Source of the DNA: Nitrospirota bacterium
GTDB lineage: Bacteria > Nitrospirota > JACRHJ01
Direction: 5' to 3'
DNA length: 64,000 nucleotides
NCBI GenBank assembly: GCA_027328825.1
Contig: DAHWTK010000001.1
Coordinates: 16,703-80,702, forward strand
The notes beneath the pieces are model-generated. The model worked only from the letters and a program-made list of their open reading frames with translations. It did no database searches and was not told the DNA's origin. The translations under genes were made by a program, and so were the position numbers. Below, in pieces: positions 19,755 to 38,436 of the stretch (position 1 is its first letter; the number at the start of each line of letters is the position of its first letter).

Positions 19755-19755
19755 A

Positions 19756-20646: not shown

Positions 20647-20693
20647 AAAAGACCCTGAATATTAATTCTGGAATTTCCAATACGAGACATGCA

Positions 20694-22673
20694 TCAGGCA
20701 TGTGCCGAAACGTTTTCATGCAGCGCCGCAAGAGCCCTGGCAGCTATTTTTCGCACCATGACGTCTTCATCTTTCAGCGCGGACTGCAGCGCTCCGCAAA
20801 CCCCATCGCCTCCTGCCTTGCCGAGGGCCTCGGCCGCCGCCGCCCTGACGCTCCAATGGGTATGCGAGAGAAGCTCCGTCAGCAGTGGAACTGCTTTCTC
20901 GCATCCAATCCGGCCAAGCGCCTGGACTGAAGCCATGAGAATGTCCCTGTCGCCCGCGCAAGCAGTTTCAAGCACGGGCTGGCAGGCCTCTTTTCTTCCC
21001 AGCGCCCCAAGCGCTTCGAGGGCCGCGACCGCCAGTTCGCGCGGTGAATCGTTCAGGATTTCCATGAGCGAGAAAATGGCGATCGGATCCCTTTGTTCCT
21101 TCAAGGCTCCGATGGCATAGAAACAGAACCGTTCATCCCTATCCTTGACAAATTTTATAAGTCTTTGCAGTATATGCGGGTCCCTCACCTTTCCCATGGA
21201 TACAACTGCCTGTTGCGCCACCTTCAGGCTTTTATCGTTGAGGGCCAGGAGCAGGCATGGGACCGCCTTTTCTCCGCCGATGCGTCCGATGGCTTTTACG
21301 GCTACTTCGCGTATCGTTTCCCTGGGGTCGTCGAGGAGAGCTGCGAGCGGTCTTATCGCCTCCTCTGCCTTAACTCTTCCCAGTGTCTCTGCGGCCAGGC
21401 GCATATACCTTACGTCTCCTCCGCTCTGTATGTATGGCAGGAGCCTGGTAAAAACAATCCCGGGCGAGAGATCCGAAAGCGCGGCTACCGCAGCCTCCTG
21501 CACTTCTGGGCTTTCGTCTTCCAATGCGTCCGCCAGATCGCCCACCGCCTCGGACGCCCCTATCCTGCCAAGCGATATAGCCGCTTCCGCGCGTATCATG
21601 TTCATATCGTCATGGATCATCCGTATAAGATACTCCACCCCCGGCCCCGGACCCAGGCTTCCCAGGTAACCGACTAACGCCTGCCGCACGCGGCCTGAGG
21701 GATTTTTCATGTGTTTCCCGGCTTCAGGCAACGCCGCCGTTCCAATTTCGCGAAGGGTCTTCAGCGCCGCTGCGGCCAGATTATCGTCTTCAAGCAGTTC
21801 AAACGCCCTTCCCGAAGCCGCCTCGTATCTGAGAATCCCCGCGGCCATAAGCGCGTTCTCTTTCAATTGATATTCGCCGCCTTCGAGAATTCCAATTAAA
21901 TATGCCCCGAAATTCTGCCCGCCCAGCTCAGTACGAAGCTTCTCCTCTACGGACAAGACCTCCTCGATATGCTCATTATCGCCGGACATTTTTTTGAATA
22001 TTTCCATCAGCGCCTGGAAGGCCGCGTCCCGATGCGTGGAACCCTCCAGGCGAAGAATATTCAAAAGCGGATCAATGGCTTGCGGGCTTCCAATATTTCC
22101 AAGCGCCTGGATTGCTACCGGGGATAGAAGCTCATTGTCCAGATATTTTAAAATGCAGGGAACGGCGCGCTCGGCCTTCAAATTCCCAAGCGCGGCGATA
22201 ACGGGATATGCGCTCCAGAAGTCGCTTTTATCCAATACCTCCATAAGCGGCGTTACTGTCGACGGGTCGCCTATCTTGCCAAGAGCCTCTGCGGCGGCAT
22301 GCGATACATTGGGCTCGTTATCTCTTAGCGCGCTCAGCAGCACCGGGATTGCGGCCTGGCTTCCGATAACCCCCAGCATGACACAGGCAAAATTTCTGAT
22401 TTCCCAGTCCGGGTCGGCGGCGAGGCGCGACAGGGCCGGCATGGCATCTTCGCCGAAACCGATGAAGACCTCCATGGCCGAGTTCCGTCTGTCCGCATCG
22501 CTGTTATCCCTTAAAGCCTCCTCAAGACAGGCTCTGACTTCGGTAAACCCTGCCTGCAAGATCCGCGCCTTCGCCGCCTTCCTCGTCGCAGGGTTTCCGG
22601 TCTTCATCGCAGAGAGGAGGTCGGGGATATCCGCCGCCCCAGAGAGACCCGCATGTCCGGCCCGGTCAGACAT
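20694..22673 (-). CDS. HEAT/PBS-lyase-like repeat protein
   Basis: 659 aa of reiterated ...A(A/V)xALGxIGxxxAVxxLxxLLxDx... HEAT repeats; embedded between two cheR genes. Confidence 0.7.
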   Translation of the reverse strand: MSDRAGHAGLSGAADIPDLLSAMKTGNPATRKAAKARILQAGFTEVRACLEEALRDNSDADRRNSAMEVFIGFGEDAMPALSRLAADPDWEIRNFACVMLGVIGSQAAIPVLLSALRDNEPNVSHAAAEALGKIGDPSTVTPLMEVLDKSDFWSAYPVIAALGNLKAERAVPCILKYLDNELLSPVAIQALGNIGSPQAIDPLLNILRLEGSTHRDAAFQALMEIFKKMSGDNEHIEEVLSVEEKLRTELGGQNFGAYLIGILEGGEYQLKENALMAAGILRYEAASGRAFELLEDDNLAAAALKTLREIGTAALPEAGKHMKNPSGRVRQALVGYLGSLGPGPGVEYLIRMIHDDMNMIRAEAAISLGRIGASEAVGDLADALEDESPEVQEAAVAALSDLSPGIVFTRLLPYIQSGGDVRYMRLAAETLGRVKAEEAIRPLAALLDDPRETIREVAVKAIGRIGGEKAVPCLLLALNDKSLKVAQQAVVSMGKVRDPHILQRLIKFVKDRDERFCFYAIGALKEQRDPIAIFSLMEILNDSPRELAVAALEALGALGRKEACQPVLETACAGDRDILMASVQALGRIGCEKAVPLLTELLSHTHWSVRAAAAEALGKAGGDGVCGALQSALKDEDVMVRKIAARALAALHENVSAHA

Positions 22674-22687
22674 AGACTGTCCATTCT

Positions 22688-23617
22688 TTAAAAAGGCTTG
22701 GCATAATAAACGGCATCTCCTTCGGTAATAACATTAAACTCGTGTTCAAAGAGGTGCAGGGGTTCGGAATCTCCTGTGAAAAGAAATCCGCCGGGCCTCA
22801 GGCATCGGTAAAGGGTGTTTACCAGCCGCGCCTGCGCGGTTCTGTCGAAATAAATCATAACGTTTCTGCAAAAAATAAAGTCGAAATACCCTGTCGCGTC
22901 CAATTTCTTTACCGGCCCGCCCGCCGATCCAAGCTCCATAATGCCGCGCCTTGCCGAGATATCTTTTAAATTTAACTCGTAGAATTTCACTATGCTTGCA
23001 GGAAGCTCCTTTACGGCAAGGCCTCCTTCGCTTCTCTCCATATACCGCGACAGCATATCCGGGGCTATATCTTTCACGGAACTGTTACCGTAAACACCCA
23101 TCCTCGCACGGTCCAGAACTAAACGGTTTATGTCCGTGGCCGTTATCTCGATATCCCATGCCCGCGGGAACTTGAGACTGTCGAGAATCGTAAAGGCGAT
23201 TGAATATGTCTCCTCGCCCGTGGAACAACCCGCGCTCCAGACCCTGAGATACATAAACGGATGCCTCTCGCCCCATTTCCATGGCCGCGTTTCGTCGCCC
23301 CAGGATTTAACGACTTCCCTGTTTTTCTTCTCTATCATCTCGGGGAGTATGCTTTCCTTGAGCGCCCTGAACTGGGATGGATTTCTGAAAAACCGCGTTT
23401 CGTTTACCGTCAATTCTTCAAGCAGACTCTGCATTTCTTCCGGCTCTTCCAGAAGACAATTATAGTAATTCTCGTAATCGGAATGTCCGCCGGCGATAAG
23501 GCGCTCCCGCAGGTGGTCTTCTAAAAAGACTTGCTTGGTTGCCGGGAAGAAAAGGTCGCACCTCTCCCTGACGAGCTTGTTGAATCTGGCAAGTTGTTCC
23601 TGCGTTATGGTCTGCAA
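22688..23617 (-). CDS. cheR: CheR-type MCP methyltransferase (second copy)
   Basis: 309 aa; ETRFFRNP, SAGCSTGEETYSIA motifs. Confidence 0.8.
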   Translation of the reverse strand: MQTITQEQLARFNKLVRERCDLFFPATKQVFLEDHLRERLIAGGHSDYENYYNCLLEEPEEMQSLLEELTVNETRFFRNPSQFRALKESILPEMIEKKNREVVKSWGDETRPWKWGERHPFMYLRVWSAGCSTGEETYSIAFTILDSLKFPRAWDIEITATDINRLVLDRARMGVYGNSSVKDIAPDMLSRYMERSEGGLAVKELPASIVKFYELNLKDISARRGIMELGSAGGPVKKLDATGYFDFIFCRNVMIYFDRTAQARLVNTLYRCLRPGGFLFTGDSEPLHLFEHEFNVITEGDAVYYAKPF

Positions 23618-23618
23618 C

Positions 23619-26147
23619 TTAGCCCCTCGCCGCCGGCTGATACGCTATACCCTGCATGACCTTATAAGCCTCGCAGTGCATGCAGTTGGCAAGCTTTGTA
23701 CGCGCGTCTCCCTGCTGAACGCCTTTGCACCACGTGCTGTCTATAAGCCAGCAGCGCTTCTCCGGGTTCTGGTATGCCGGACATTTAAGCCTGAATTCCG
23801 TGGCGCAATGCAGGACGTCCCAGCAGTTAATATTAATTTCCCTGGTCTTGAATATGCTTATCGCTTTCTGAAGTGACTCCGCCTGATACGTCAGGTTCTC
23901 GGCGGCGGAGCCCATCTGCTTGACCGCGCCCAGGTTCTCCCTCGCAATATCCGAAATATTTTCAACCGCCTTTACGACCAGTTCTCCGCCGCGCTTCTGT
24001 TCAGCGGTCGCATTGGCCACTATTTGGGTCATGGAATTCATGTTTTCGACCGCCTTAATTATCTGAGCGCTTCCAGAAGCCTGCTCTTTTGTAGCAAGAG
24101 AGACTTCGTTCGTGACGCGGTTCATGTCCTCCACGGCCAACCTTATCTGCCTGCCGCCGGTAGATTGCTCTTTCATCGCGCCTGCGAGCTGGCGTGTAAT
24201 GACGTTCATATTCTCCACGGCATTTTTAATCTGATGTGATCCGGACACCTGCTCCTTCACGGCCTTCGTAACTTCATCCGCCGCTTTATTCATATTCTCG
24301 ACCGACTTCAACACCTGCGCCGCGCCAGAGGCCTGCTCGGAAGATGCGTTATTTATTTCGGTCATAAGGCGGTTAGTGGCGCCGACGCTTTCCAGTATTC
24401 TGGAGAGCGATGCCCCGGCTTTGTCCGCAAGTTTCTTGCCTTCCAATGTTTCGGCGGCTCCCGCCTCCGCAGTACTGACAGCCTGGCCGGTTTCTTCCTG
24501 CACCTGCTTTATTACTTCGCCTATTTCCTTGGTGGCCACTACCGACCGCTCTGCCAGTTTGCGTACCTCGTCCGCAACAACGGCGAATCCCCTGCCGGCG
24601 TCGCCTGCCCTGGCGGCTTCTATAGCCGCGTTAAGCGCAAGCAGGTTTGTCTGGTCGGCTATTTCCTCAATCACGCCGACTATCTTGCCGATTTCTTCCG
24701 AGCGCCTGCCAAGACTGCCCATGACCTTGGATGTGGCATTCATAGTCTCGGCAATCCGGTTTATACCCTCTATGGTGTGTTCCACGGCCTCGCTTCCGGC
24801 CTTTGCGGCTTCCGACGCCTTCTGGGATATGCCGTCCGCCTCGGATACATTCATTGCAACCCGCCGTATTGAGGCGGCCATTTCCTCAATTGTCGCCGAT
24901 GTCTCGGATACCGTGCCGGAAAGCCTGGAGGCGTTTTCCCCTACCTGGCCGATGGAGGCGAGCATCTGTTCTATTGTGGCCGAGGTCTCTTCCACCGATG
25001 ATGACAGACCTTCCGAATCCTTCGCAACTCTGTCTATCGAGGCCGTCATCTGTTCTATTGTGGCCGATGTCTCGGATACGGATGAGGCCATCGCCTGGCT
25101 GTTTTTAGCGACCTGCTCTATAGAGGCGACCATCTGGTTTACACTTGCCGAAGTCATATCGACATTTGAGGCGAGTTGGCCAGCGTTATCGGCTACGCTT
25201 TGAATGGATGCGGCCATCTCCTCCATGCTGGATGACGTCTCATCCGCCGCACTTGCCTGTACCGCCGCACCTTTGTTTATCTGCTGGGCGCTTTTCCCTA
25301 CCTGGTCCGCCGCCGAGGCGACCTGCGCCGCGGTCTGATTGGCCGTCTCGACCATTTCGCTCAGGTTGCCTACCATTTTATTGATGGTTTCCCCAAGTAT
25401 GCCAAGCTCATCACTTGTATGCACTCTGATTCGCTGCGTAAGGTCTCCCCCGGCCACTTTGTCGGCGATCCTTATATTTTCCGCCAGCGGTTTCGTTATG
25501 CTCCGGGTTAGATACAGGCTGACGCCGATGCCTATAATAACCGCCACCGCTATGAACATAACTATAATTATGATAACGTGCCTCGCAAAGTCGTTCACCA
25601 CCTGTCCCATCCCATTCATCCGTTTCCTCGATGCGTCCTTCAAATCATTGGCCGCGGCCTCCATCTGATGTATGGGGTCCTTATGCGGGACCATCTCCTC
25701 GTTGCCTTCCTGGGGAGTCTTTATCTTCCCGGCATCCATCATTGCTTTAGCCTTCAAAAAGGATTCTTCATAGGTTGTCGCCTCCTCCTTCATCCTGGAA
25801 AGTGTTTCCCTTTCTTCCGGTAGGTATACGACCTTATCGAGATTTGCCAGCCTTTCGGAAAGCTTGACCTGCCAGCTCTTCCAGGTATTGAAATAATTGC
25901 CATCCGTCTTTTTGTCGTCAATATTCAAAAATACATCCTTCTCGCCCCGCCTCAGTTCGAGGATTTCGGCCCTTGCCGCAGCCGCATTCTCCGCTATGGC
26001 CGCATCGGTCTGAAGCATTACGGTGGTCTTTTTAGAGACGTTGGCAACCCCCCAGTAACCCGCGCCGCCGACTGCGACCATCATAAGCAAAACGATGCCG
26101 AACCCGATTATCAGCCGCGTACCTATATTCATGTCCTTGTTTCTCAT
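23619..26147 (-). CDS. methyl-accepting chemotaxis protein (TM-periplasmic sensor-TM-HAMP-long signalling domain-C-terminal 7-Cys module)
   Basis: 842 aa; two TM segments flanking a roughly 170-aa periplasmic domain, HAMP, long heptad-rich MCP signalling domain, then the CWDVLHC...CMHCEAYK tail. Confidence 0.9.
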
Positions 26148-26169
26148 TTAAATCCTCCAGTCGTTGGCG

Positions 26170-26778
26170 TTACCGCACGCACTCCACGTCTTTCCATATC
26201 ACGTTTTCGAAATCAAGAAGTATAATGAGCCGTCCGTCCATCTTGCCAACTCCATTTATATACCCATTTCCGGCGCCGGATATTTCTTCCGGAGGCGGCT
26301 CCACCACGTCGCCCGGCATCTTGAATACCTGAGATACCCTGTCAACCAGAAGTCCGAGCGCCTTGCCGCCGCCAACCGTTTTGTCGCCGGCCTCGACCAC
26401 TATTATCCTCGAATCCTTCACCACATCCGCATATCCCATGCCTATCCTGGCCTTCAGGTCCATCACGGGGATTATGCGCCCTCTGAGGTTTATAACGCCC
26501 TTGACGTGCGCGGGAGCGTTCGGCACCCACGTCCATCTTCCGGCCCTTATAATCTCCTGTACCCTCACTATTTCCAGCGCATATTCCTCTTGTCCCAGGA
26601 AGAATCCAACCAGGTGAAGCATCTCTCCCGCGGACTTCGCCTGATTATGCCGGCCAGTTTCGCCCTCAGGCCCGTGCGGTGCTTCCGGCGGGGCTCCCGC
26701 CCGCCCCAGTATCTCTTCCGCAAGCCCGGAAGTAGGCAGCGTTATTTTACGATTCGGGTCCGGCACGCCTTCCGTCAT
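26170..26778 (-). CDS. cheW: chemotaxis coupling protein CheW
   Basis: 202 aa CheW-like domain; start overlaps cheA stop (ATGA). Confidence 0.85.
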   Translation of the reverse strand: MTEGVPDPNRKITLPTSGLAEEILGRAGAPPEAPHGPEGETGRHNQAKSAGEMLHLVGFFLGQEEYALEIVRVQEIIRAGRWTWVPNAPAHVKGVINLRGRIIPVMDLKARIGMGYADVVKDSRIIVVEAGDKTVGGGKALGLLVDRVSQVFKMPGDVVEPPPEEISGAGNGYINGVGKMDGRLIILLDFENVIWKDVECVR

Positions 26779-28481
26779 CTCATACCTCCCTTGACAACCT
26801 GTCTATATGCGGCTTTTTCCACGATACCGGCTATGTCCAGTATCAGAACGACTCTTCCGTCTCCCAGGATAGTGGCGCCGGCAATACTCTCGCCTTCCCC
26901 CAGATACTCGTCGAGCGCTTTAATCACTACTTCCTGTCTCCCCATCAGACCGTCCACCATCAGGGCGGCCATCTTATCGTCTCTCCCGACAACTACAGCG
27001 TAGGCACGGTTGGATGGCGCGGCAGTCTCGCGGCCTGCTCCGCCAATCCACCCTGCTTCCGCCGGATCATCCTGTCCGAAAAGCCTGTCAAGCCTGACGA
27101 GCGGAAGAATCCTGTCCCGGAGAAAGATTACCTCGTCTCCGCTGATGGTCTTTATATCCCCGGAGTTGAGCTTGACGCTCTCAACCACGGAAGAAAGCGG
27201 AAGCGCGTAGAGCGTCCGGCCAGATTTCACCATCAGCGCGGATATTATTGCCAGCGTAAGAGGAAGCTTTATTGTGAATGCAGTGCCTGCGTCGGGCCTG
27301 TTTTTAACATCGATACTGCCGCCGAGTTTCGTTACGCCTTTTTTCACCACGTCCAGACCCACGCCTCTGCCGGATACTTCAGTAATTTTTTTTGCAGTTG
27401 AAAATCCAGCTTCAAAGATAAGCTCTGTCGCGCCTTGATCGCTTAATCCCGATACGAATTCAGCCGTATAAATCTTGGACGCCCTGGCCCTAACGGCATT
27501 TATATCTATGCCGGCCCCGTCGTCCGATACCGTAATAATTATATGGTTCCCCTCCTGTGCGGCTGAAAGCGTTATCTCTCCGACGCTCGATTTTTTCTTC
27601 AGGAGCCTTTCCTCCGGTCCTTCTATGCCGTGATCTACCGCGTTTCTTATGAGGTGTATGAGCGGCTCTCCAATCTCGTCGATAACCGTCTTGTCCAGTT
27701 CGGTTTCTCCTCCCTGGAAAACCAGATTTATCTCCTTGCCCCTTTCACGCGAAAGGTCCCTGACCATACGCGGGAAACGCTGGAATACCTGCCGTATCGG
27801 CAGCATCCGCACCTTCATTATGGCTTCCTGGAGCTGGGAGGTTGATTTGAATATCTCCGCCGTCACTTCCGAGAGATCGTAAGCCACCGTCTTGTCCAGC
27901 TTCAGTTCGCTGAAAATTCTGCTTGTCATCGCCAGCCTGGTCCTGTGTATTATCAGTTCGCCCACTAAATTGAGAAGATGGTCCAGGCGCTCGAAATCAA
28001 CCTTGAGTATATTGGATTTATCCGCAATATATCTGAAGCTGTCGCCCCTGGATTTTGGTATTGCCGCCTGAGAGCCGGCCTCGCCTTCCGTTGTTTCGCC
28101 AAGGGCCTTTATCTGTTCGGCAAGGTCTATTTCTGCTTTAGGATTTTCTCTGAGCCGTTCGAGCGCTTCTCTCATGACAGCGACCGAGTCAAACAGTTTC
28201 TGGAGCTTATCGTCGGTCAAGCCGGAGCCGTCTTCGAGCAGCTTTTTGAAAATCCCTTCGATATGGTGAACATACTGCTGAAGAGACTCAAACCCCATCA
28301 TTCCCGAATTCCCTTTAAGGGTATGCAATGACCCCAGCAGATCGGATATAAGCTCGATATCCAGACTGCCCTGGCCCAGATATTTCTCCATCTCGATAAG
28401 CGAGGAGTCGAGCTTGTCTATATGCCCGCTGGCGTCCTCAAAAAACTCATTTATAAGGCCGGAGGTATCGAAATCTTCCAT
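26775..28481 (-). CDS. cheA: chemotaxis histidine kinase CheA (P1-P3-P4-P5; no obvious P2)
   Basis: HPt HTLKGNSGMMGF; HATPase N-box HLIRNAVDHGIE, G-boxes DDGAGID and GRGVGLDVV; C-terminal CheW-like domain. Confidence 0.9.
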   Translation of the reverse strand: MEDFDTSGLINEFFEDASGHIDKLDSSLIEMEKYLGQGSLDIELISDLLGSLHTLKGNSGMMGFESLQQYVHHIEGIFKKLLEDGSGLTDDKLQKLFDSVAVMREALERLRENPKAEIDLAEQIKALGETTEGEAGSQAAIPKSRGDSFRYIADKSNILKVDFERLDHLLNLVGELIIHRTRLAMTSRIFSELKLDKTVAYDLSEVTAEIFKSTSQLQEAIMKVRMLPIRQVFQRFPRMVRDLSRERGKEINLVFQGGETELDKTVIDEIGEPLIHLIRNAVDHGIEGPEERLLKKKSSVGEITLSAAQEGNHIIITVSDDGAGIDINAVRARASKIYTAEFVSGLSDQGATELIFEAGFSTAKKITEVSGRGVGLDVVKKGVTKLGGSIDVKNRPDAGTAFTIKLPLTLAIISALMVKSGRTLYALPLSSVVESVKLNSGDIKTISGDEVIFLRDRILPLVRLDRLFGQDDPAEAGWIGGAGRETAAPSNRAYAVVVGRDDKMAALMVDGLMGRQEVVIKALDEYLGEGESIAGATILGDGRVVLILDIAGIVEKAAYRQVVKGGMR

Positions 28482-28488
28482 CTTGCTC

Positions 28489-28881
28489 CTATACGGCTAC
28501 CGTTTGTATTTCCGAGAATATTCTCTCTATGAGGTTGTGCAGTTCCGCGGGCTGAAAAGGCTTTTTGACATATCCCTTGGCGCCGAGCGTCAGACCGCGG
28601 AGAGTGTCTTCCTCCTTGCCCTCGGTGCTCACTATGATTATGGGCGGGGCCTTGAAGTCCGTCTCTTTGCTTAAGGCCTCAAGGAACTGAAGGCCGTTCA
28701 TTACCGGCATATTTATATCCAGGAGGATAAGCTCTATGCCTTCTTCCTGGGAAAGCTTGTCCAGGGCCTCAAGCCCGTTCATGGCCGCGATAAGCCTGCA
28801 GTCCTTGTAGCGCATGAATACCAGTTTATACATCTGGTGCAGCAGGCTTGAATCGTCCACTATAAGAATTTTCTTGAGCAT
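28489..28881 (-). CDS. cheY: CheY-like response regulator
   Basis: 130-aa single receiver domain (ILIVDDS..., LLDINMP, K near the C-terminus). Confidence 0.85.
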   Translation of the reverse strand: MLKKILIVDDSSLLHQMYKLVFMRYKDCRLIAAMNGLEALDKLSQEEGIELILLDINMPVMNGLQFLEALSKETDFKAPPIIIVSTEGKEEDTLRGLTLGAKGYVKKPFQPAELHNLIERIFSEIQTVAV

Positions 28882-28892
28882 CTTAGTTCCCC

Positions 28893-29291
28893 CTATGCCG
28901 CGGAAGCCGGGCCCGGAACCGGAATCCCAAGCCGGTTCACCATCATAAGCAGGTGGTCAATATCCACCGGTTTTTCATAGTAGTAATAAGCTCCCCGTTT
29001 GAACGCTTCCTCCTTTATTTCCGGAGAACCGTAAGCGGTCATGATTATTACCGCCGTCACCGGGTTCAATCCTTTCACGTATTGCAATAACTCAAGACCT
29101 TCAATGCCGTACATGCCGCTCATCCGGATATCCGCTATCACCAGGTCAAATGAATATCTGGCCAGCGCTTCCTCTGCGGCCTCTATCTTTGAGCAGGTTA
29201 TAACCTCGACTCCGTCAGCCTTCAGGCAATATGAAAGGCTCAGAAGTATGGTAGGTTCATCATCCACGATAAGAATTCTTTTCATCATCAT
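28893..29291 (-). CDS. single-domain response regulator (receiver)
   Basis: 132-aa receiver domain ILIVDDEPT..., ADIRMSG. Confidence 0.8.
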   Translation of the reverse strand: MMMKRILIVDDEPTILLSLSYCLKADGVEVITCSKIEAAEEALARYSFDLVIADIRMSGMYGIEGLELLQYVKGLNPVTAVIIMTAYGSPEIKEEAFKRGAYYYYEKPVDIDHLLMMVNRLGIPVPGPASAA

Positions 29292-29331
29292 GCACCCCTT
29301 GTATGTAAAATCTATTACCGCCCAAGATATA

Positions 29332-29347
29332 GCAACAAGAATGCCAC
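29332..29347 (-). promoter_or_regulatory. sigma-54 promoter TGGCAT-N5-TTGCT about 40 nt upstream of the REC/cheY/cheA operon start
   Basis: minus-strand ggTGGCATtcttgTTGCT, exact -24 GG / -12 GC spacing. Confidence 0.55.
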
Positions 29348-29421: not shown

Positions 29422-29440
29422 ACAATACAGGTTGTATTGT
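29422..29440. promoter_or_regulatory. palindrome ACAATACA-ggt-TGTATTGT, candidate enhancer (UAS) about 80 bp upstream of the sigma-54 promoter
   Basis: read directly; lies between ntrC-like stop and the -24/-12 element. Confidence 0.4.
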
Positions 29441-29444
29441 TTTG

Positions 29445-30800
29445 CTACAGGAGGTCGTACTTTTTCAGCTTGTTTATCAGCGTGGAGCGGCTTACACCCA
29501 GGAGTCGGGCGGCAAGGCTCTGGTTTCCGCGAGAGAAATCAATAGTCTTTTTTATATGGTCTTTTTCCAGCCTATCGAGCGAACACGGGGCTGAAGGATT
29601 GTTTTGCTGCCCACTCTGGCCCATTTGCGCCTTCTTTTCGAGCAGTTCTCTGGGCAGATGTTCGGGGGTTATGGCCGGTCCTTGCGACAGTATAACGGCG
29701 CGCTCAATAACGTTCCTAAGCTCTCTTATGTTGCCCGGCCACGAGTAGGCGAGCAGGTAGCCTTCGCAATCTTCCGAGATTTCGGTTATATTCTTTTTAA
29801 TCGCCGCGCTTTGCGAGAGAAAATACTTAGCCAGGTCGAGAACGTCGTTCTCCCTTGCCCTGAGCGGCGGCATATGCACAGGCATGACGCATAGCCTGTA
29901 GTAGAGATCTTCCCGGAAGTTTTTCCGGTTATCCGGGTCGGACAGCTCTTTGTTGGTTGCGGCCATTATTCGGACGTCCACCTTTATGTCCCTCGTCCCG
30001 CCTACTCTCCGGAATGTCTTGGTCTCTATTACCCTTAGAAGCTTCGGCTGAAGATTCATCGACAGTTCGGCTATCTCGTCCAGGAATACCGTCCCGCCGT
30101 CGGCTACTTCCAGAAGCCCCTTTTTCATTTCCTTCGCGTCGGTATAAGCGCCTCTTTCGTGCCCGAAAAGCTCGGATTCAAGAAGATGCTCCGACAACGA
30201 TGCACAGTTAATGTCCAGGAAAGGTTTGTCCTTCCTTGCGCTCAAGCCGTGAATGGTCCTTGCCGCAAGCTCCTTGCCGGTGCCGGATTCGCCGGTAATC
30301 ATTACCGTGGTATCCGGGTTTTCCGCGAGCAGTCCTATTATGAGCAGTATCTTATGAATTTCTCTGGAACTTCCTATAATACCAGCATGAGAGCCGCCAT
30401 GCCTCATTTTCAGGACCAGATTTTCCTTCTTGAGACCCTGCGTTTCCAACGCCCGTTCAACCGCTATCTCCAGGGCGTCGATGTCCACCGGTTTGGTAAG
30501 ATAATCATAGGCCCCTTTCCGTATGGCCTGCACAGCATCGGGCAGATTGGCATAGCCCGTGAGCATTATGACCATGATGTCGGGCTGTTCGGCTTTTATC
30601 ATTTCAAGCGCCTGAAGCCCGGTTCCGTCCGGAAGCCTGTTGTCCAGAATGACCAGGTCTGGCCTGAGCGTCCATGCCAGCTTAAGTCCCTCCGCTATAG
30701 TTGCGCCGGCCGATACGGAAAATCCTTTCCCGGTAAACAGGTAGCTTAGGGATTTGCGTATAGTCTCTTCGTCGTCTATTATCAATACCGAATGCGGCAT
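29445..30800 (-). CDS. sigma-54-dependent response regulator (NtrC family: REC-AAA+-HTH)
   Basis: 451 aa; Walker A GESGTGKE, GAYTDA (GAFTGA variant) sigma-54 contact loop, C-terminal Fis-type HTH; start immediately follows the kinase stop. Confidence 0.9.
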   Translation of the reverse strand: MPHSVLIIDDEETIRKSLSYLFTGKGFSVSAGATIAEGLKLAWTLRPDLVILDNRLPDGTGLQALEMIKAEQPDIMVIMLTGYANLPDAVQAIRKGAYDYLTKPVDIDALEIAVERALETQGLKKENLVLKMRHGGSHAGIIGSSREIHKILLIIGLLAENPDTTVMITGESGTGKELAARTIHGLSARKDKPFLDINCASLSEHLLESELFGHERGAYTDAKEMKKGLLEVADGGTVFLDEIAELSMNLQPKLLRVIETKTFRRVGGTRDIKVDVRIMAATNKELSDPDNRKNFREDLYYRLCVMPVHMPPLRARENDVLDLAKYFLSQSAAIKKNITEISEDCEGYLLAYSWPGNIRELRNVIERAVILSQGPAITPEHLPRELLEKKAQMGQSGQQNNPSAPCSLDRLEKDHIKKTIDFSRGNQSLAARLLGVSRSTLINKLKKYDLL

Positions 30801-32540
30801 TTAAGTCCTTTCTGGTGTTACGGGGATATATGGTATGTCTATATTGACGCTCGTGCCCTGGCCCAAGAGGCTTTTTACTGCAATCGTTCCGCCGTGGTCT
30901 TCGATTATCTTGCGGCAGATGGCGAGTCCGATGCCGGTCCCCTTTTCCTTGGTGGTAAAGAAAAGGTCAAATACTTTAGGCAGGTCCGCCTCCGGTATGC
31001 CTGCACCCTGGTCCGATATTGCTATTTTGATTGTATCGTCCGACCGGCTCGCTGAAATTCCCATTCTGCCGCCCTCATGTGAGGCGTCTATTGCGTTTAT
31101 CAGGAGATTCAGGAAAACCTGCCGTATCTGATTAAGATCAATCATAGCCATTTCTATGCCGGAACACTTTCTTACTACATTGAGACTTTTTTCGCTGATT
31201 GCAACAAAATGAAATTCCAGGACGTTTTCTATAAGCGAACATATATCGACGGGCTGTCTATGCAGTTTTACTGTCCGGTTATACAGAAGCATATCTTCTA
31301 CAAGCCGGTTCAGCCTGCTTGTCTCCGAGAGCATGGCCTGCACTAGCGGCCTGATAGGATTTTCGTCACTCGTTTCCCTTGCTATTATCTGTGCGACCGA
31401 GGTAATGCCGAAAAGCGGGTTTCTTATCTCGTGTGCGACGCCGGCCGCGACCTTCCCGACCGCCGCAAACCGCTCCTTCTCACGGAGATCGTCCTGGAGT
31501 TTTTTTATCTCGCTCAAATCCCTGAACACAATAATAAAACCTTCCGGATTCCCGTCCCTGGAAATAAGATGGTTGTTGTTGAAACCTACCGGGACGGCTC
31601 CTCTTGGCGTAAGAATTTCCACCTCGTCGCCTATTATCCGCGGCTTGACCTCCAGCATACCAGCCGCCTCCGGATAAATGAGCGTTATGTCCTTCCCGAT
31701 TATTGCCTCGCGGTCGCACCCCAATATCTCAGATCCGGAGATGTTTATCATTTTTACCTTGCCAGTCAGATCGGTAACGAGGAGCCCTGCGGCCATATTG
31801 AAGATGATACTGTCAAGCAGATGCTCGTTTTTCTTTATTTTCCCCATGTTTTTTATATTGCTCATAAGACTTGCGGCGGAGTTGGCAAAAAGGTTCAGGG
31901 AGTTCAGATCATCCTGGGTTATGGGCTTTTTACTCACATGGTTGTCGGCGCATATAAGGCCGAAATTCCTTCCCATCGTATTCGTCTTGTATATCGGGCA
32001 GTTTCCGCAAATATCCATCCGGGAAAGCATGTTGTCGCTGCCGCGCAGCATTCTACAGCTATTTTCTATAACCCAGCAGGACAGAAGGGGACTGTTTCTT
32101 GACGGGCAATTCTCGTCATTGCATCCAAAATATTTCCAGCATATCAGTTGACGATTTTCCGGATTATATGTTACCAACGGAGCTACGGCTATCTCTGCGC
32201 CGCCGGAGCGCCCTTTTATTATTCCGCAAAGTGGCTTCGATGTTGTAAAAGCCTCGCTCTTGTCGAGTTTGAGTGCTTCGAGCCCGGACACCTCCAACGG
32301 AGTCGACAGTTCTTCGCCTGCCGTGCTATGACATGCAGCGAGACGGCGGGTACCATCGCTATCGTCTATAAGCCACAGACATACCCTGTCGAACCCTATG
32401 GCCTCCGCCACTGCCCAGACTGCTATATTGGCCGCCTCCTGCAAGTCGCCTGAAACTCTTACGCGGTTGGAAAACCAGTTAAGAATAAATAGCTGGTTCA
32501 GTTTTTTTTCGTATAAATCACCTGTCGATTTGAATGTCAA
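30801..32540 (-). CDS. sensor histidine kinase (GAF - 7-Cys module - PAS - HisKA - HATPase), cytoplasmic
   Basis: 579 aa, no TM segments; H-box HEIRNPLFGI; G-boxes; Cys module at aa 134-185; TTG start with GGAG RBS. Confidence 0.85.
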   Translation of the reverse strand: MTFKSTGDLYEKKLNQLFILNWFSNRVRVSGDLQEAANIAVWAVAEAIGFDRVCLWLIDDSDGTRRLAACHSTAGEELSTPLEVSGLEALKLDKSEAFTTSKPLCGIIKGRSGGAEIAVAPLVTYNPENRQLICWKYFGCNDENCPSRNSPLLSCWVIENSCRMLRGSDNMLSRMDICGNCPIYKTNTMGRNFGLICADNHVSKKPITQDDLNSLNLFANSAASLMSNIKNMGKIKKNEHLLDSIIFNMAAGLLVTDLTGKVKMINISGSEILGCDREAIIGKDITLIYPEAAGMLEVKPRIIGDEVEILTPRGAVPVGFNNNHLISRDGNPEGFIIVFRDLSEIKKLQDDLREKERFAAVGKVAAGVAHEIRNPLFGITSVAQIIARETSDENPIRPLVQAMLSETSRLNRLVEDMLLYNRTVKLHRQPVDICSLIENVLEFHFVAISEKSLNVVRKCSGIEMAMIDLNQIRQVFLNLLINAIDASHEGGRMGISASRSDDTIKIAISDQGAGIPEADLPKVFDLFFTTKEKGTGIGLAICRKIIEDHGGTIAVKSLLGQGTSVNIDIPYIPVTPERT

Positions 32541-32639: not shown

Positions 32640-32657
32640 AGCAATAAATATGCCAAT
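32640..32657 (-). promoter_or_regulatory. sigma-54 promoter TGGCAT-N5-TTGCT about 100 nt upstream of the histidine kinase
   Basis: minus-strand atTGGCATatttaTTGCT; identical hexamers and spacing to the 29332 element. Confidence 0.55.
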
Positions 32658-32765: not shown

Positions 32766-32803
32766 CAGTAGATTCTACTGCTAATAGTGACAACTTATTG
32801 TCA
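32766..32803. promoter_or_regulatory. two palindromes (CAGTAGA-t-TCTACTG and TGACAA-cttat-TTGTCA), candidate enhancer sites for the upstream sigma-54 promoter
   Basis: read directly, 110-160 nt upstream of the -24/-12 element. Confidence 0.3.
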
Positions 32804-32966: not shown

Positions 32967-33049
32967 GCGAGAGTGGCGGAACTGGCAGACGCGCCGGACT
33001 TAGGATCCGGTGGGCAACCATGGGGGTTCAAGTCCCCCCTCTCGCACCA
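32967..33049 (+). tRNA. tRNA-Leu (anticodon TAG), CCA encoded
   Basis: acceptor stem GCGAGAG/CTCTCGC, anticodon stem CCGGA/TCCGG with loop CTTAGGA, long variable arm, T-arm GGGGG-TTCAAGT-CCCCC, discriminator A, CCA. Confidence 0.85.
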
Positions 33050-33352: not shown

Positions 33353-34645
33353 ATGAAATTCGAGATTGAAGAACTCGCAAAGACCAGAAAACGCCTCAAG
33401 GTAGAGATATCCGCCGAGGACATAAACACCGCGCTTAACAAGGCGTATGCGGAACTGAACAAGTCCGTGAAAATAGAAGGTTTTCGCCCCGGACATGCCC
33501 CCAGGGGAATCCTCGAGAAAAAATATGGCAAGAGCGTCGAGGCGGACGTCATAGAGAGGATAATACCGGTAAATTACTTACAGGCCGTCCGGGAGTCCGG
33601 CATCGTTCCTGTTGACGAGCCGAAGTTTTCTGAAAACGATTTCAGGATAAAAAAGGGAGAGCCGCTTTCCTTTACCGCGGAGGTGGAGGTCAGGCCGGAT
33701 ATTTCCTTGAATTATAGCGACATAGAAGTCCCGGAGGAGGAGCTTTCCGTCTCGGACGAGGAACTTTCCTCGGCCCTTGAGGAGTTGCGGGACGTAAATT
33801 CCACCCTCGAAGCGGTGGCTGAGGACCGTCCTGCCGCAGAGGGAGATTTCGCCGTAATAGATTTTGAAGGGTTCATAAACGGGGCTCCCATACCGGGTGG
33901 AAAGGCCGAAAACTACCCCTTGAACCTGGGTTCCGGGAGCTTCATTCCGGGCTTCGAGGAGCAGGCGACGGGGATGAAAAAGGGGGAGGAAAAGGAAATT
34001 ACCGTAACGTTTCCCGAGAGTTATAAAAGTGCAGACCTCGCCGGGAAGGAAGCGGTCTTCAAGATAGCCCTGAAGGACATAAAAAAGAAAATCCTCCCTG
34101 AGCTCGACGATGAATTCGCTAAGGACACAAGGATTGCCGAAAGCCTGGAGGAAATGAAGTCAAAGGTGCGCGAAGACATTCTTGGCATAAAACGCCGAAA
34201 CCAGGCCGAGAGGCAAAAAGACAGGATAATGGAGGAACTCGGGAAGCGGCACGACTTCGAACTGCCCCAGTCCCTGGTGGACAGGGAGACAGGCTCCCTG
34301 AAGGCAAAGAAGCGCCGGGAACTTATGTCTTCGGGCCTCAAGCCGGAGGAAGCCGGGGCCGAGATGAAGCGATTCGAAGAGGAGGCCGTGAAAATGGCCT
34401 CCGAGAGGGTGAAGGTGTCCCTGGTCCTTGCCGCAATATCGGACAGGGAAGGCGTCCGGGTTTCGGACCAGGAACTCGATTTGGGCATACAGCGCCTGGC
34501 GGCCCAGACGGGGCATAACCCCAGGGATTTAAAAGAGCTTTATATGCGGCGGGAAGGCGGCATGGAAGCCCTGCGCGGTATGCTTGGGGAAGATAAAACG
34601 CTTGAGCTCGTGCTCTCGCAGGCAAAAAGGGTCAAGGCCGCCTGA
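33353..34645 (+). CDS. tig: trigger factor
   Basis: 430 aa; N-terminal ribosome-binding domain with GFRPGHAPR signature, FKBP-type PPIase middle, C-terminal arm. Confidence 0.9.
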   Translation: MKFEIEELAKTRKRLKVEISAEDINTALNKAYAELNKSVKIEGFRPGHAPRGILEKKYGKSVEADVIERIIPVNYLQAVRESGIVPVDEPKFSENDFRIKKGEPLSFTAEVEVRPDISLNYSDIEVPEEELSVSDEELSSALEELRDVNSTLEAVAEDRPAAEGDFAVIDFEGFINGAPIPGGKAENYPLNLGSGSFIPGFEEQATGMKKGEEKEITVTFPESYKSADLAGKEAVFKIALKDIKKKILPELDDEFAKDTRIAESLEEMKSKVREDILGIKRRNQAERQKDRIMEELGKRHDFELPQSLVDRETGSLKAKKRRELMSSGLKPEEAGAEMKRFEEEAVKMASERVKVSLVLAAISDREGVRVSDQELDLGIQRLAAQTGHNPRDLKELYMRREGGMEALRGMLGEDKTLELVLSQAKRVKAA

Positions 34646-34771
34646 AAATTTACCAAAAATCCTTTTTTAAGGTAAAATTAAATCAGGCAATCGTTGCTTT
34701 TATGCGGTATTTGGTTTAAAATACATTAGGAATTATTTCCAATAATAAAAATCGCATTCCCGGAGGGTTTA

Positions 34772-35371
34772 ATGCTCATCCCGTATGTCATAGAGCAGAC
34801 CGCGCGTGGCGAAAGGGCCTACGATATTTACTCCCGTCTGCTCAAGGACAGGATTATATTCCTTGGGACAGCAATCGACGACGAAGTCGCCAACGCCGTG
34901 ATAGCCCAGCTGCTTTTCCTCGAGGCCGACGACCCGGACAAGGAAATCCATCTGTATATAAACAGCCCCGGCGGGGTGGTAACAGCCGGGCTTGCGATAT
35001 TCGACACGATGAATTACGTCCGCGCCCCGGTATCCACGATATGCCTGGGTCAGGCCGCCAGCATGGGCGCGCTTCTTCTTGCCGCGGGCGAGAAGGGCAG
35101 AAGGTTCAGCCTGCCGAATTCGCGTATTATGATACATCAGCCATCGGCGGGTTTCCAGGGCCAGGCGACGGACATAGACATCCACGCAAGAGAGATACTC
35201 AGGATGAAGGAGGCCCTGAACCAGATACTAGCCAGGGCTACCGGCCAGGACATCGGAAAAATCGCTATAGACACGGACCGGGATTTCTTTATGAGCGGTA
35301 TGCAGGCTAAGGAGTATGGCCTTATCGACGCCGTAATCGAGAGACTGCCCGAAGGGCCGGGAAAATTGTAA
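34772..35371 (+). CDS. clpP: ATP-dependent Clp protease proteolytic subunit
   Basis: 199 aa; [11 protein letters not shown] (Ser) and MIHQPS (His) catalytic motifs. Confidence 0.95.
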
Positions 35372-35382
35372 ATACATTTGAT

Positions 35383-35424
35383 TCCTTCTCCCTCTCCTCT
35401 CGCTTAGGAGGGCCAGGGAGAGGG
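35383..35424. repeat. REP-like hairpin CCCTCTCC...GGGAGAGGG in clpP-clpX spacer
   Basis: ccttctccctctcctctcgcttaggagggccagggagaggg; same arm sequence as 7821-7854. Confidence 0.55.
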
Positions 35425-35474
35425 TAAATTATAGCGGCGCCAGCAATAATCTGTAGCAGGAGGTTTTTTACGGT

Positions 35475-36731
35475 ATGGAGAAGAAAACGGATAACGACAA
35501 GGCTATCCATCATTGTTCGTTTTGCGGGAAAAGCCAGGACGAGGTCAGGAAGCTTATAGCCGGCCCCACAGTCTTTATCTGCGACGAGTGCATAGAGCTT
35601 TGCAACGACATTGTTGCGGAGGAGTGGGACGAGGAACGCGCCGCGGGTCAGCCGAAACTCCCGAAGCCCGCGGAGATAAAGCGGTTCCTGGACGAATACG
35701 TCATAGGCCAGGAAAGGGCCAAGAAGATTCTTTCCGTCGCCGTGCATAACCACTACAAGCGCATATCCACACCCGTGACGGAGCTGGACGACGTGGAGCT
35801 CCAGAAGTCCAACATCCTGCTTATAGGCCCGACAGGCGTGGGCAAGACGCTTCTCGCCCAGACGCTGGCCCGGATGCTCGACGTGCCGTTCACCATAGCG
35901 GACGCTACCACCCTCACGGAGGCGGGCTATGTCGGCGAGGACGTCGAGAATATTGTCCTTAAGCTCCTTCAGGCGGCGGATTACGATGCCGAGCGCGCTC
36001 AGAGAGGCATAATCTACATCGACGAGATAGACAAGATCTCCCGGAAGTCGGAGAACCCGTCCATTACCCGCGACGTCTCCGGCGAAGGAGTCCAGCAGGC
36101 GCTTCTGAAGATTATCGAAGGCACGGTGGCCTCCGTACCGCCGCAGGGCGGCAGGAAACACCCGCACCAGGAGTTCATACAGGTCGATACCTCGAACATT
36201 CTCTTCATCTGCGGCGGCGCGTTCGTGGGGCTCGACAAGATAATCGAGCACCGGGGCGGCGAGAAGGTCATGGGCTTCGGCGCGGAGGTGCATTCTAAAA
36301 AAGAGAGAAAAATCGGCGAGATACTGGCGCAGGTGCAGCCGGAAGACCTGCTGAAGTTCGGCATGATACCGGAGTTCATAGGCAGGGTGCCGGTCATAGC
36401 CACACTCGTGGAGCTTGACGAAGAGGCCCTGGTAGCCATCCTCACAGAACCCAAGAACTCGCTCATAAAGCAGTATCAGAAGCTTATGACGATGGAGGGC
36501 GTGAAACTCCGTTTCACGGACGGCGCGATGAAGGCAATCGCCAAGAAGGCCGTCCAGAGAAAGACCGGCGCGAGGGGCCTTCGGGCGATACTCGAAGAGG
36601 TCATGCTCGACCTCATGTACGATGTGCCATCCCAGCAGAATGTAAAGGAAGTCGTGATAAACGAGGAGGTAATCAACAGCCGCGAGCCGGCGATTCTCCT
36701 CTACGAAAAAGAGGAAAAAGAGGCCTCCTGA
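35475..36731 (+). CDS. clpX: ATP-dependent Clp protease ATP-binding subunit ClpX
   Basis: N-terminal C4 zinc finger CSFCGK...CDEC; Walker A GPTGVGKT; IYIDEIDK Walker B. Confidence 0.95.
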
Positions 36732-36843: not shown

Positions 36844-38436
36844 TTACTGCCCGAGCATTGCCTTCAAGTCCGCTTCGGGGGTGGTAATCGGCATGATATT
36901 GAATTTCTCCACGAGCGCACCGGCGACGTTCGGCGAAAGAAACGCCGGGAGCGACGGCCCTATGCGGATGTTCTTTATGCCGAGGTTCAGAAGTGTCAGG
37001 AGTATGGACACGGCCTTCTGCTCGTACCACGAAAGCACAAGCGAGAGCGGCAGGTCGTTTACGCCGACTCCGAACGCCTCGGCAAGCGCCACGGCTATCT
37101 TTACCGCGGAGTAGGCGTCGTTGCACTGGCCGATGTCGAGCAGCCTCGGTATCCCGCCTATGTCTCCGAATTCGAGCTTGTTGAAGCGGTATTTCCCGCA
37201 GGCAAGCGTAAGGATTACGGAGTCTCTGGGCGCGGCCATAGCCAGTTCGGTATAGTAATTTCTGCCGGATTTTGCGCCGTCGCAGCCGCCTATCAGGAAG
37301 AAATGCTTTATTTTCCCGGCCTTGACGGCGTCGATTACCTGCCCGGCGACACCCATTACGGTATTCCTGCCGAAACCCGTAAGTATCGTCTGCTCAGGGG
37401 CGTCTGCGGCAAATCCCGGGGCTTTCATGGCCGCATCGATAACGGCTGAGAAGTCCCTGTCCTTTATGTGCGTAACGCCCGGCATGGCGACAAGCCCTGT
37501 CGTGAATATCCGGCTCTGGTAGCTCTCGCGGGGCTTCTGGATGCAGTTTGTCGTCATGACGACGGCGCCGGGGAATGCATCGAATTCCTTAACCTGGTCC
37601 TGCCAGGCCCCGCCGTAGTTTCCCGCAAGGTGCGGGTATTTCTTGAGGCCCGGATATCCGTGCGCGGGGAGCATCTCTCCGTGCGTGTATATGTTTATAC
37701 CTTTGCCCTCGGTCTGTTTCAGGAGTTCTTCAAGGTCTTTCAAGTCATGCCCGGATATGACTATCGCCTTGCCCTTCACAGGCGTTACCCGCACTTTCGC
37801 GGGAACGGGGTGGCCGTATGCGCCCGTATTTGCGCCGTCCAGAAGCTCCATGGCCCGCAGGTTCACCGCCCCTGCCTGCATGGCAAGCTCGAAGAGCCTC
37901 TCCGCAGTCTGTTTTTCTTCGGCCAGATAGCTCATGGCGTCGTGTATGAAGCGAAATACATCCGCGTCCGTCTGCCCGAGGATATAGGCGTGGTCGGCAT
38001 AAGCGGCTATTCCCTTTACGCCGTAGGTGACAAGCTCCTGAAGCGAGGATATGTCCTCGCCGTATTTCTCTCTGCGCGCGGTTATGGACACGGGGGAACC
38101 AGGAGCGAGCGTCTCCGGCTTTCCGCCAGCCGCCTCGCACATGGCCTTCGCCCTTGCCTTCATCTCGCCGGCCTTTTTAAGCCAGGCATCGAGGCGGACG
38201 GGGTCGAAATTTACATTGGTAAGGGTGGAGAAAAGGGCCTCCGCCACGAAAACGTCCACTTCTTCGTCCCTTTTGCCGGCTTTCGCGGCGCGGGAGGCGT
38301 ATTGCGATATGCCTTTGACGGCGGAAACCAATTCATCTTGAAGCAAGGCGGTATTTTCGTCCTTGCCGCATACTCCCTTGACCGTGCAGCCGGTTCCCTT
38401 GGCGGCCTGTTCGCACTGGTAGCAGAACATTCCCAT
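36844..38436 (-). CDS. hcp: hybrid-cluster protein / hydroxylamine reductase
   Basis: N-terminal MFCYQCEQAAKGTGCTVKGVCG cysteine cluster and about 530-aa length typical of Hcp; AAGGAGA RBS. Confidence 0.9.
   Translation of the reverse strand: MGMFCYQCEQAAKGTGCTVKGVCGKDENTALLQDELVSAVKGISQYASRAAKAGKRDEEVDVFVAEALFSTLTNVNFDPVRLDAWLKKAGEMKARAKAMCEAAGGKPETLAPGSPVSITARREKYGEDISSLQELVTYGVKGIAAYADHAYILGQTDADVFRFIHDAMSYLAEEKQTAERLFELAMQAGAVNLRAMELLDGANTGAYGHPVPAKVRVTPVKGKAIVISGHDLKDLEELLKQTEGKGINIYTHGEMLPAHGYPGLKKYPHLAGNYGGAWQDQVKEFDAFPGAVVMTTNCIQKPRESYQSRIFTTGLVAMPGVTHIKDRDFSAVIDAAMKAPGFAADAPEQTILTGFGRNTVMGVAGQVIDAVKAGKIKHFFLIGGCDGAKSGRNYYTELAMAAPRDSVILTLACGKYRFNKLEFGDIGGIPRLLDIGQCNDAYSAVKIAVALAEAFGVGVNDLPLSLVLSWYEQKAVSILLTLLNLGIKNIRIGPSLPAFLSPNVAGALVEKFNIMPITTPEADLKAMLGQ

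Follow-up and report, generated by a model that had tools for sequence, protein, structure and literature searches.

A seven-cysteine two-CW module nested within the GAF domain of a soluble Nitrospirota histidine kinase encoded beside a sigma-54 activator and a chemotaxis-like cluster

GAF and PAS domains usually sense their cue through a ligand or a cofactor that is held in a pocket of their own fold. The GAF domains of phytochromes and cyanobacteriochromes are enlarged by extra elements that hold the prosthetic group, and the NreB-type kinases, which are cytoplasmic, sense oxygen with a cysteine-ligated [4Fe-4S] cluster in the PAS domain that forms their N-terminal sensory fold. AtoS and ZraS, two further kinases that enter the comparison below, are membrane proteins. 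An iron-sulphur (Fe-S) cluster can also reside in a GAF domain, as in the chloroplast sensor kinase CSK and the cyanobacterial Hik2, soluble kinases whose N-terminal GAF domain houses a [3Fe-4S] cluster and whose autophosphorylation is controlled by the redox state of that cluster; CSK has no cysteine motif, and its single identified cysteine ligand lies within the GAF domain itself (PMC6949291). The present work concerns a histidine kinase encoded in a stretch of 64,000 nucleotides from a Nitrospirota bacterium (assembly GCA_027328825.1, contig DAHWTK010000001.1, positions 16,703 to 80,702), which is referred to here in its entirety as the window. The N-terminal GAF domain of this kinase carries an inserted seven-cysteine unit, the two-CW module, and the gene is followed by those for an NtrC-type sigma-54 activator and for a chemotaxis-like pathway. 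A first reading of the same DNA, made by a model from the letters and their translations, is called the original prediction in what follows.

The two-CW module of the kinase is nested in a hairpin of the GAF domain and does not lie between the GAF domain and the PAS domain. The arrangement is that of a domain within a domain, in which the inserted residues 126-189 take the place of the hairpin turn and the GAF domain comes to its end near residue 230. The gene and the parts of its product are laid out as follows.

30801 to 32540, minus strand: coding sequence of the sensor histidine kinase, a soluble protein of 579 residues (open reading frame and translation).
32166 to 32453, minus strand: first part of the GAF domain, about residues 30-125, its last strand being residues 117-124 (IAVAPLVT) (Pfam, alignment to 3oov, AlphaFold2 model).
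31974 to 32165, minus strand: insert in the GAF hairpin that holds the two-CW module, residues 126-189 (alignment to 3oov, AlphaFold2 model).
31986 to 32141, minus strand: the two-CW seven-cysteine module itself, residues 134-185 (sequence, match to NF045718, conservation).
31851 to 31973, minus strand: second part of the GAF domain, residues 190-230, comprising strand 191-199 (GRNFGLICADN) and the closing helix (alignment to 3oov, AlphaFold2 model).
31518 to 31817, minus strand: PAS domain, residues 242-341 (Pfam PF00989, 23.8 bits against a cutoff of 22.6).
30831 to 31457, minus strand: HisKA, residues 362-422, and HATPase_c, residues 468-570 (Pfam).

The nesting is seen in sequence alignments, in a predicted structure and in structural comparison. 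The GAF structure 3oov of the PDB aligns to the kinase in two pieces, query residues 22-73 with chain residues 6-57 and query residues 181-229 with chain residues 118-163, and the strands of 3oov that are equivalent to the flanks of the insert are joined by a turn of three residues. The Pfam GAF profile (PF01590) reaches its gathering score on the kinase (23.8 bits against a cutoff of 22.4) over residues 32-83, which correspond to profile positions 1-51 of 133, a coverage that stops there because the insert interrupts the match. Two homologues display the profile straddling the module: profile positions 3-133 correspond to residues 84-274 of P0139, whose module is at 190-235, and in P0155, GAF_2 positions 1-99 reach as far as residue 399, the module occupies residues 404-451 and GAF_3 positions 94-128 restart at residue 456. 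An AlphaFold2 model of residues 1-240, built with a 40-sequence alignment (predicted local distance difference test score, pLDDT, of 85.6; predicted template modelling score, pTM, of 0.82) and used in place of a full-length run with 19 sequences (pLDDT 61), places helices 6-28 and 33-48 and strands 52-58, 65-72, 98-100 and 117-124 before the module, four short helices in the module itself (pLDDT 68-83), and strand 191-199 and a long closing helix, residues 209-239, after it. The model and the split 3oov alignment both contain the complete GAF fold, that is, the beta-sheet with its N-terminal and closing helices. Further, a Foldseek search of the PDB with this model returned matches to GAF and phytochrome GAF domains only, with a probability of 1.0, and template modelling scores relative to the target of 0.72 for 3oov and 0.75 for 3cit, both of them plain GAF domains. 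Since the GAF domain continues at residues 190-230, the module lies within it.

The original prediction had ordered the protein as a GAF-like domain of residues 1-130, the seven-cysteine module and then PAS, with the module inserted between two small-molecule-binding folds. That layout has to be redrawn, as the split 3oov alignment, the straddling Pfam matches, the AlphaFold2 model and Foldseek all have the GAF domain resuming at residues 190-230, and the module interrupts the GAF domain itself instead of forming a linker domain. The same reading had proposed structure prediction as a check on whether residues 134-185 are an independent module or simply a part of the GAF or PAS fold. Here the answer is divided: in sequence the module is nested in the GAF domain, and in structure it is not a part of the GAF fold.

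The module of the kinase, CWKYFGCNDENCPSRNSPLLSCWVIENSCRMLRGSDNMLSRMDICGNCPIYK, spans residues 134-185, which map exactly onto positions 31986 to 32141, and holds seven cysteines, at residues 134, 140, 145, 155, 162, 178 and 181. Its pattern, C-W-x4-C-x4-C-P-x9-C-W-x5-C-x15-C-x2-C, fits the generalised form of the two-CW pattern, C-W-x4-C-x4-C ... C-W-x5/6-C-x14-16-C-x2-C, over about 50 residues. Conservation of the cysteines and tryptophans is far above chance. No substitution is seen at C134, W135, C140, C145, C155, W156, C162, C178, C181 or Y184 among 19 homologues that are 44-89% identical, so that the conserved seven-cysteine module of the original prediction holds up; against 31 other modules, the alignment columns C5, W6, C11, C16, C26, W27, C49 and C52 are invariant. 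An exhaustive HMMER search with residues 1-240 against 1.84 billion cluster representatives yielded 79 matches at E <= 0.001, nine of them at E <= 1e-10, and the C-W...C...C...C-W...C...CxxC pattern was present in 20 of the 75 matches that were newly returned. Across 32 modules, and again across 40 longer segments, both CW pairs and six cysteines are invariant, and the fifth cysteine is always there, displaced by one residue between subfamilies. Alignment column counts revealed no conserved eighth ligand across the two-CW family. As an observation of its own, the GAF strand that directly follows the module in the kinase contains an eighth cysteine, C197 (31950 to 31952, minus strand), which is invariant in 19 of 19 homologues of the kinase family and absent from the other families that have a GAF domain with a two-CW module; it could add a fourth ligand to a three-cysteine site in the kinase family only.

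By pattern, the module belongs to the family that NCBIfam names "two-CW domain-containing protein" (NF045718), though it falls under the cutoff of the model, with 20.6 bits (E 4.4e-4, 53 residues) against the required 35. The two share both CW dipeptides and the seven-cysteine spacing; they differ in that the fifth cysteine of the kinase copy lies one residue nearer to the second CW and in that K/SR stands in place of the consensus E/AY. The NF045718 model carries a name only and states no function, and text searches of the literature on the two-CW or NF045718 module found no paper on it. No Pfam model matches the module, and PDB sequences, searched with a module profile, gave no match even at E <= 10. 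That the two halves of the module go back to an internal duplication was also considered and was rejected as unsupported (hhalign probability 20%).

The positions at which the module is found support the view that the two-CW unit is self-contained and portable. In the HAMP-GAF-PAS kinases P0152, P0158 and P0184, its place is nearer the start of the GAF profile than in the window kinase, by about 25 positions, before the strand reading ...ATVPLM..., and profile positions 76-133 come after it; there are therefore at least two insertion points in the GAF domain. In P0130 and P0162, an N-terminal module is followed by a separate GAF domain, in P0166, P0180, P0185 and P0193 it precedes, at the N-terminus, PAS, HD-GYP or histidine kinase modules, and in P0147 and P0154 a GAF domain with a nested two-CW module is coupled to GGDEF. 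P0151 (218 residues), considered as a stand-alone GAF domain with a two-CW module, was set aside as a fragment, since its contig measures 809 nucleotides and a cluster member of 385 residues exists. The second GAF site, the N-terminal positions and a C-terminal position in a chemoreceptor described below together argue for portability, which the original prediction had claimed on the strength of the repeat in that chemoreceptor and which is now borne out by the NF045718 match and by modules that are N-terminal, C-terminal or embedded in histidine kinases and in GGDEF, HD-GYP, PAS and methyl-accepting chemotaxis proteins (MCPs). All the partner domains found are signal-transduction domains, a pattern that supports a role as an input module.

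The remainder of the kinase is conventional. Its domain order runs from the GAF domain with the nested two-CW module through PAS to HisKA, with His370, and HATPase_c; the class I histidine kinase assignment follows from scores of 46.8 bits for PF00512 and 92.2 bits for PF02518, and the phospho-acceptor H370 in AHEIRNPL is invariant in the 19-homologue alignment. The highest 19-residue Kyte-Doolittle mean along the protein is 1.47, and no transmembrane segment is therefore predicted. On both counts, a cytoplasmic kinase without membrane segments and PAS, HisKA and HATPase following the module (at 242-341, 362-422 and 468-570), the first reading of the letters agrees with the hydropathy and the Pfam matches. 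Translation starts at a TTG codon that is preceded, 6 nucleotides upstream, by the Shine-Dalgarno sequence AAGGAG. A full-length search returned one identical protein, five orthologues that are 70-89% identical and about twelve homologues of 44-52% identity; the last are about 890 residues long and have an additional REC and an additional GAF domain upstream.

The window contains one further instance of the module pattern, in the chemoreceptor of the chemotaxis-like (che-like) cluster.

18684 to 29291, minus strand: chemotaxis-like cluster of REC, REC, CheA, CheW, MCP, CheR, HEAT-repeat protein, CheR and CheB (open reading frames and domain searches).
23619 to 26147, minus strand: coding sequence of the chemoreceptor MCP, 842 residues, a transmembrane protein of 4HB-HAMP-MCPsignal organisation (Pfam).
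23673 to 23825, minus strand: the other two-CW module, located C-terminally in the MCP, residues 775-825 (NF045718, 43.5 bits against a cutoff of 35).

The repetition of the module in the MCP, which had been noticed from the letters, is thus confirmed at residues 775-825 by a score that passes the NF045718 cutoff. The MCPs of the related loci L001, L003 and L010 end in a nearly identical two-CW module. Two further features of the cluster may be recorded alongside. Across distant loci, conservation is much higher for the MCP copy than for the kinase copy, and the cytoplasmic region of the MCP before the module is unusually long and internally repetitive, with blocks such as KEQ.SG..QI..AVENMN. 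Between the two CheR paralogues lies a 659-residue HEAT-repeat protein, followed after the second CheR by CheB (18684 to 22673, minus strand), and the position of the HEAT protein is kept in L001, L003 and L010.

Directly downstream of the kinase lies the gene for its presumptive partner.

29445 to 30800, minus strand: NtrC-type sigma-54 activator of 451 residues with REC (Asp53), AAA+ Sigma54_activat, AAA_lid_14 and HTH_8 (open reading frame, Pfam).

The activator has the domains that define the NtrC family, with 95.4 bits for PF00072, 215 bits for PF00158 and 50.4 bits for PF02954. The TAA of the kinase is immediately followed by the ATG of the activator (...ACT TAA ATG CCG...); the two codons are directly contiguous, just as the original prediction had it in stating that the kinase stop abuts the activator start, and this abutment suggests that the pair may be translationally coupled. 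Conservation of the gene order extends across the related loci. The sequence of histidine kinase, activator, REC, REC, CheA, CheW, MCP, CheR and HEAT protein is kept in L001, in L002/L003 and in L004/L010, whose kinases are, respectively, 85%, 70% and 52% identical to that of the window; L004/L010 have one additional REC-HD gene in an otherwise unchanged order. The genes upstream of the kinase differ among L001, L002/L003 and L004/L010, and the block from the kinase to CheB is therefore taken to act as one unit. Among GTDB species representatives, the related loci come from Nitrospirae/Nitrospirota metagenome-assembled genomes in five of five cases.

Two sigma-54 promoter-like elements are present in the intergenic regions of the locus.

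32640 to 32655, minus strand: sigma-54 -24/-12 promoter-like element TGGCATATTTATTGCT, about 100 nucleotides upstream of the kinase start.
29331 to 29346, minus strand: sigma-54 -24/-12 promoter-like element TGGCATTCTTGTTGCT, about 40 nucleotides upstream of the first che-like gene.

The exact consensus TGGCAY-N5-TTGCW has exactly two matches in the 64-kb window, where 0.07 would be expected, and both are on the right strand and in the two relevant intergenic regions. A scan of the window that allowed two mismatches gave 35 sites against 49 expected, no better than chance, and only the exact consensus was counted as informative. The element before the che-like cluster recurs in the intergenic region between activator and REC in L001-L003 and L010, that is, in relatives down to 39-52% identity; in L005-L009 a match is placed, judged by spacing, as far downstream of the kinase gene as would be expected. 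The element upstream of the kinase recurs in L002, L003 and L006, and in L001 as TGGCATATTTATTGCC. Both elements are described here as promoter-like, and as candidate sigma-54 promoters. Two inverted repeats are found in the same intergenic regions. One, ACAATACA-acc-TGTATTGT (29422 to 29440, minus strand), directly follows the activator stop about 95 nucleotides upstream of the -24 element, and a TACA...TGTA core is also seen at its position in L001, L002 and L010. The other, TGACAA-taag-TTGTCA (32788 to 32803, minus strand), lies about 135 nucleotides upstream of the -24 element of the kinase. They are candidates for activator (enhancer) sites or for a terminator.

Further upstream of the kinase, ARAGORN places a tRNA-Leu gene at 32967 to 33049 on the plus strand. 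The open reading frames at 33353 to 36731, plus strand, resemble trigger factor, ClpP and ClpX when their translations are inspected by eye, and presumably encode these proteins; a minus-strand frame at 36844 to 38436, beginning MFCYQCEQ, is on the same kind of inspection presumably a hybrid-cluster protein.

Taken together, the locus probably encodes a soluble two-component kinase with a composite GAF/two-CW input that forms a circuit with the activator and the che-like cluster. The module has almost no hydrophobic core and few hydrophobic residues, and it therefore probably folds around metal, with its cysteines, as four plus three, possibly ligating one or two Fe-S clusters or zinc ions. 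In such a scheme, it would report the redox, oxygen, nitric oxide or metal state of the cytoplasm. Since the module is anchored at both ends in neighbouring GAF strands and these run into the closing helix, a change at the metal site could travel through this helix (residues 209-239) and the PAS domain to the dimerisation and histidine phosphotransfer (DHp) helices, and autophosphorylation at His370 would be altered. Phosphotransfer to Asp53 of the activator would then turn on the sigma-54 promoters that precede the kinase operon and the che-like cluster. A single cue could thus act twice, on expression of the cluster by way of the kinase and on its signalling output by way of the MCP's own two-CW module. 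In its most far-reaching form, which is offered tentatively and as possible rather than probable, the proposal is that the two-CW module is an unstudied seven-cysteine metallo-sensor cassette, most attractively an Fe-S cassette with one open or labile position; that largely anaerobic bacteria plug it into GAF loops and onto the ends of MCP, PAS, GGDEF and HD-GYP proteins; and that a single cue, be it redox, gas or metal, controls in this lineage of Nitrospirota both the sigma-54-dependent expression of a che-like pathway and the receptor of that pathway.

Several observations weigh against this proposal. The kinase module scores below the NF045718 cutoff (20.6 against 35 bits), and its pLDDT in the AlphaFold2 model is 68-83. 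A count of seven ligands is odd, and an eighth is not conserved family-wide. In the sigma-54 contact loop (within residues 208-226), where GAFTGA is canonical, the activator reads GAYTDA both here and in L001, with GAFTDA at this place in L002 and L004, and the change from Gly to Asp is kept across the family; the conserved -24/-12 elements nearby argue that the variant loop may still work. The kinase-upstream element was not found in L010 (52% identity), where an extra gene precedes the kinase. Moreover, promoter function, phosphotransfer and translational coupling are each predicted from sequence.

The chief competitor to a sensing cassette is a purely structural zinc knuckle, for instance Zn(Cys)4 plus Zn(Cys)3, that stabilises or dimerises the host or mediates protein contacts and leaves the real ligand to the GAF or PAS pocket. 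Zinc fingers are common among small cysteine-rich modules that lack a hydrophobic core, short helices and loops make up the predicted structure, the cysteine spacing is unlike classical ferredoxin or radical-SAM motifs, an eighth ligand is not conserved, and the PAS and GAF pockets are retained, all of which would suit such a knuckle. However, the module is confined to signalling proteins, where it takes the usual input positions at the N-terminus, at the C-terminus of MCPs or in GAF loops, and it has been inserted at two distinct GAF sites; the close relatives found, moreover, are all Nitrospirota metagenome-assembled genomes, from a lineage that we regard as largely anaerobic and that would weakly fit an oxygen-labile cofactor. 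A structural zinc site is hence judged unlikely, and the confinement to signalling partners together with the CSK/Hik2 precedent favours a sensing cofactor over it, not decisively.

A metal-free thiol switch, in which reversible disulfides formed under oxidative stress alter the conformation of the GAF domain, is more improbable still. Thiol-based sensors are common in bacteria, the density of cysteines is high, and an odd number of them would leave one reactive thiol; but a unit of 52 residues with seven invariant cysteines, two invariant tryptophans and few hydrophobic residues is not expected to fold without metal in a reducing cytoplasm, and CxxC and CP, both present, are motifs typical of metal sites. 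Scarcely credible is the layout first drawn, with a complete GAF domain at residues 1-130, an independent seven-cysteine linker domain and then PAS, because the Pfam match to residues 32-83, which alone could hint at a short GAF domain, represents profile positions 1-51 of 133, while the rest of the profile and the C-terminal half of 3oov align past the module and the AlphaFold2 model and Foldseek agree on a GAF domain that continues after it.

The two-CW module is spread over histidine kinases, diguanylate cyclases, HD-GYP proteins and chemoreceptors, and, given this wide spread and that no publication, Pfam entry or solved relative was found for it, identification of its cofactor would annotate many signalling proteins at once. 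The locus described here offers a compact test system, with a kinase and a chemoreceptor that carry the same module, a cognate activator and two candidate promoters as read-outs. The significance of the module would grow considerably if it proved to be a new sensor cassette that is redox-active, through Fe-S or otherwise.

How, then, does the locus compare with the systems described at the outset? The resemblance to CSK and Hik2, that of a redox-sensing kinase with an Fe-S cluster hosted by its GAF domain, is proposed as a functional analogy for the window kinase; CSK has no inserted module and has other partners and other outputs, and no sequence relation to it was detected. NreB differs in that its four cysteines are within the PAS domain, with neither a separate seven-cysteine module nor a GAF domain, and in that its response regulator, unlike the activator of the window, is not sigma-54 dependent. 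AtoS/AtoC and ZraS/ZraR share with the locus a PAS-HisKA-HATPase core encoded beside a REC-AAA+-HTH sigma-54 activator, whereas AtoS and ZraS lack the input formed here by a GAF domain with a two-CW module. The best NCBIfam equivalog scores for these two systems were 262.9 against a cutoff of 646, 210.5 against 479 and 416.5 against 714, and equivalogy to AtoSC, ZraSR and NtrBC was rejected, every score being far under its NCBIfam cutoff. The phytochrome and cyanobacteriochrome GAF domains, which are the best Foldseek matches to the model, are 7-16% identical to it; they bind a bilin through one cysteine and have no cysteine-rich module, so that the GAF fold is all that they hold in common with the kinase.

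Overall, there is nothing exceptional about the kinase core or the activator within their families. Nesting inside a GAF domain was not found as part of the NF045718 description, and this nested architecture, for which the GAF domain has two independent insertion points, is new here. A two-CW kinase paired with a two-CW MCP, an arrangement that is deeply conserved, is likewise new, as is the conserved sigma-54 promoter-like element before the che-like cluster, with a second such candidate element before the kinase in close relatives. Against the usual mode of GAF and PAS sensing, the apparent grafting of the module into GAF loops at two points suggests that a GAF domain can also act as a transmission scaffold for an inserted sensor.

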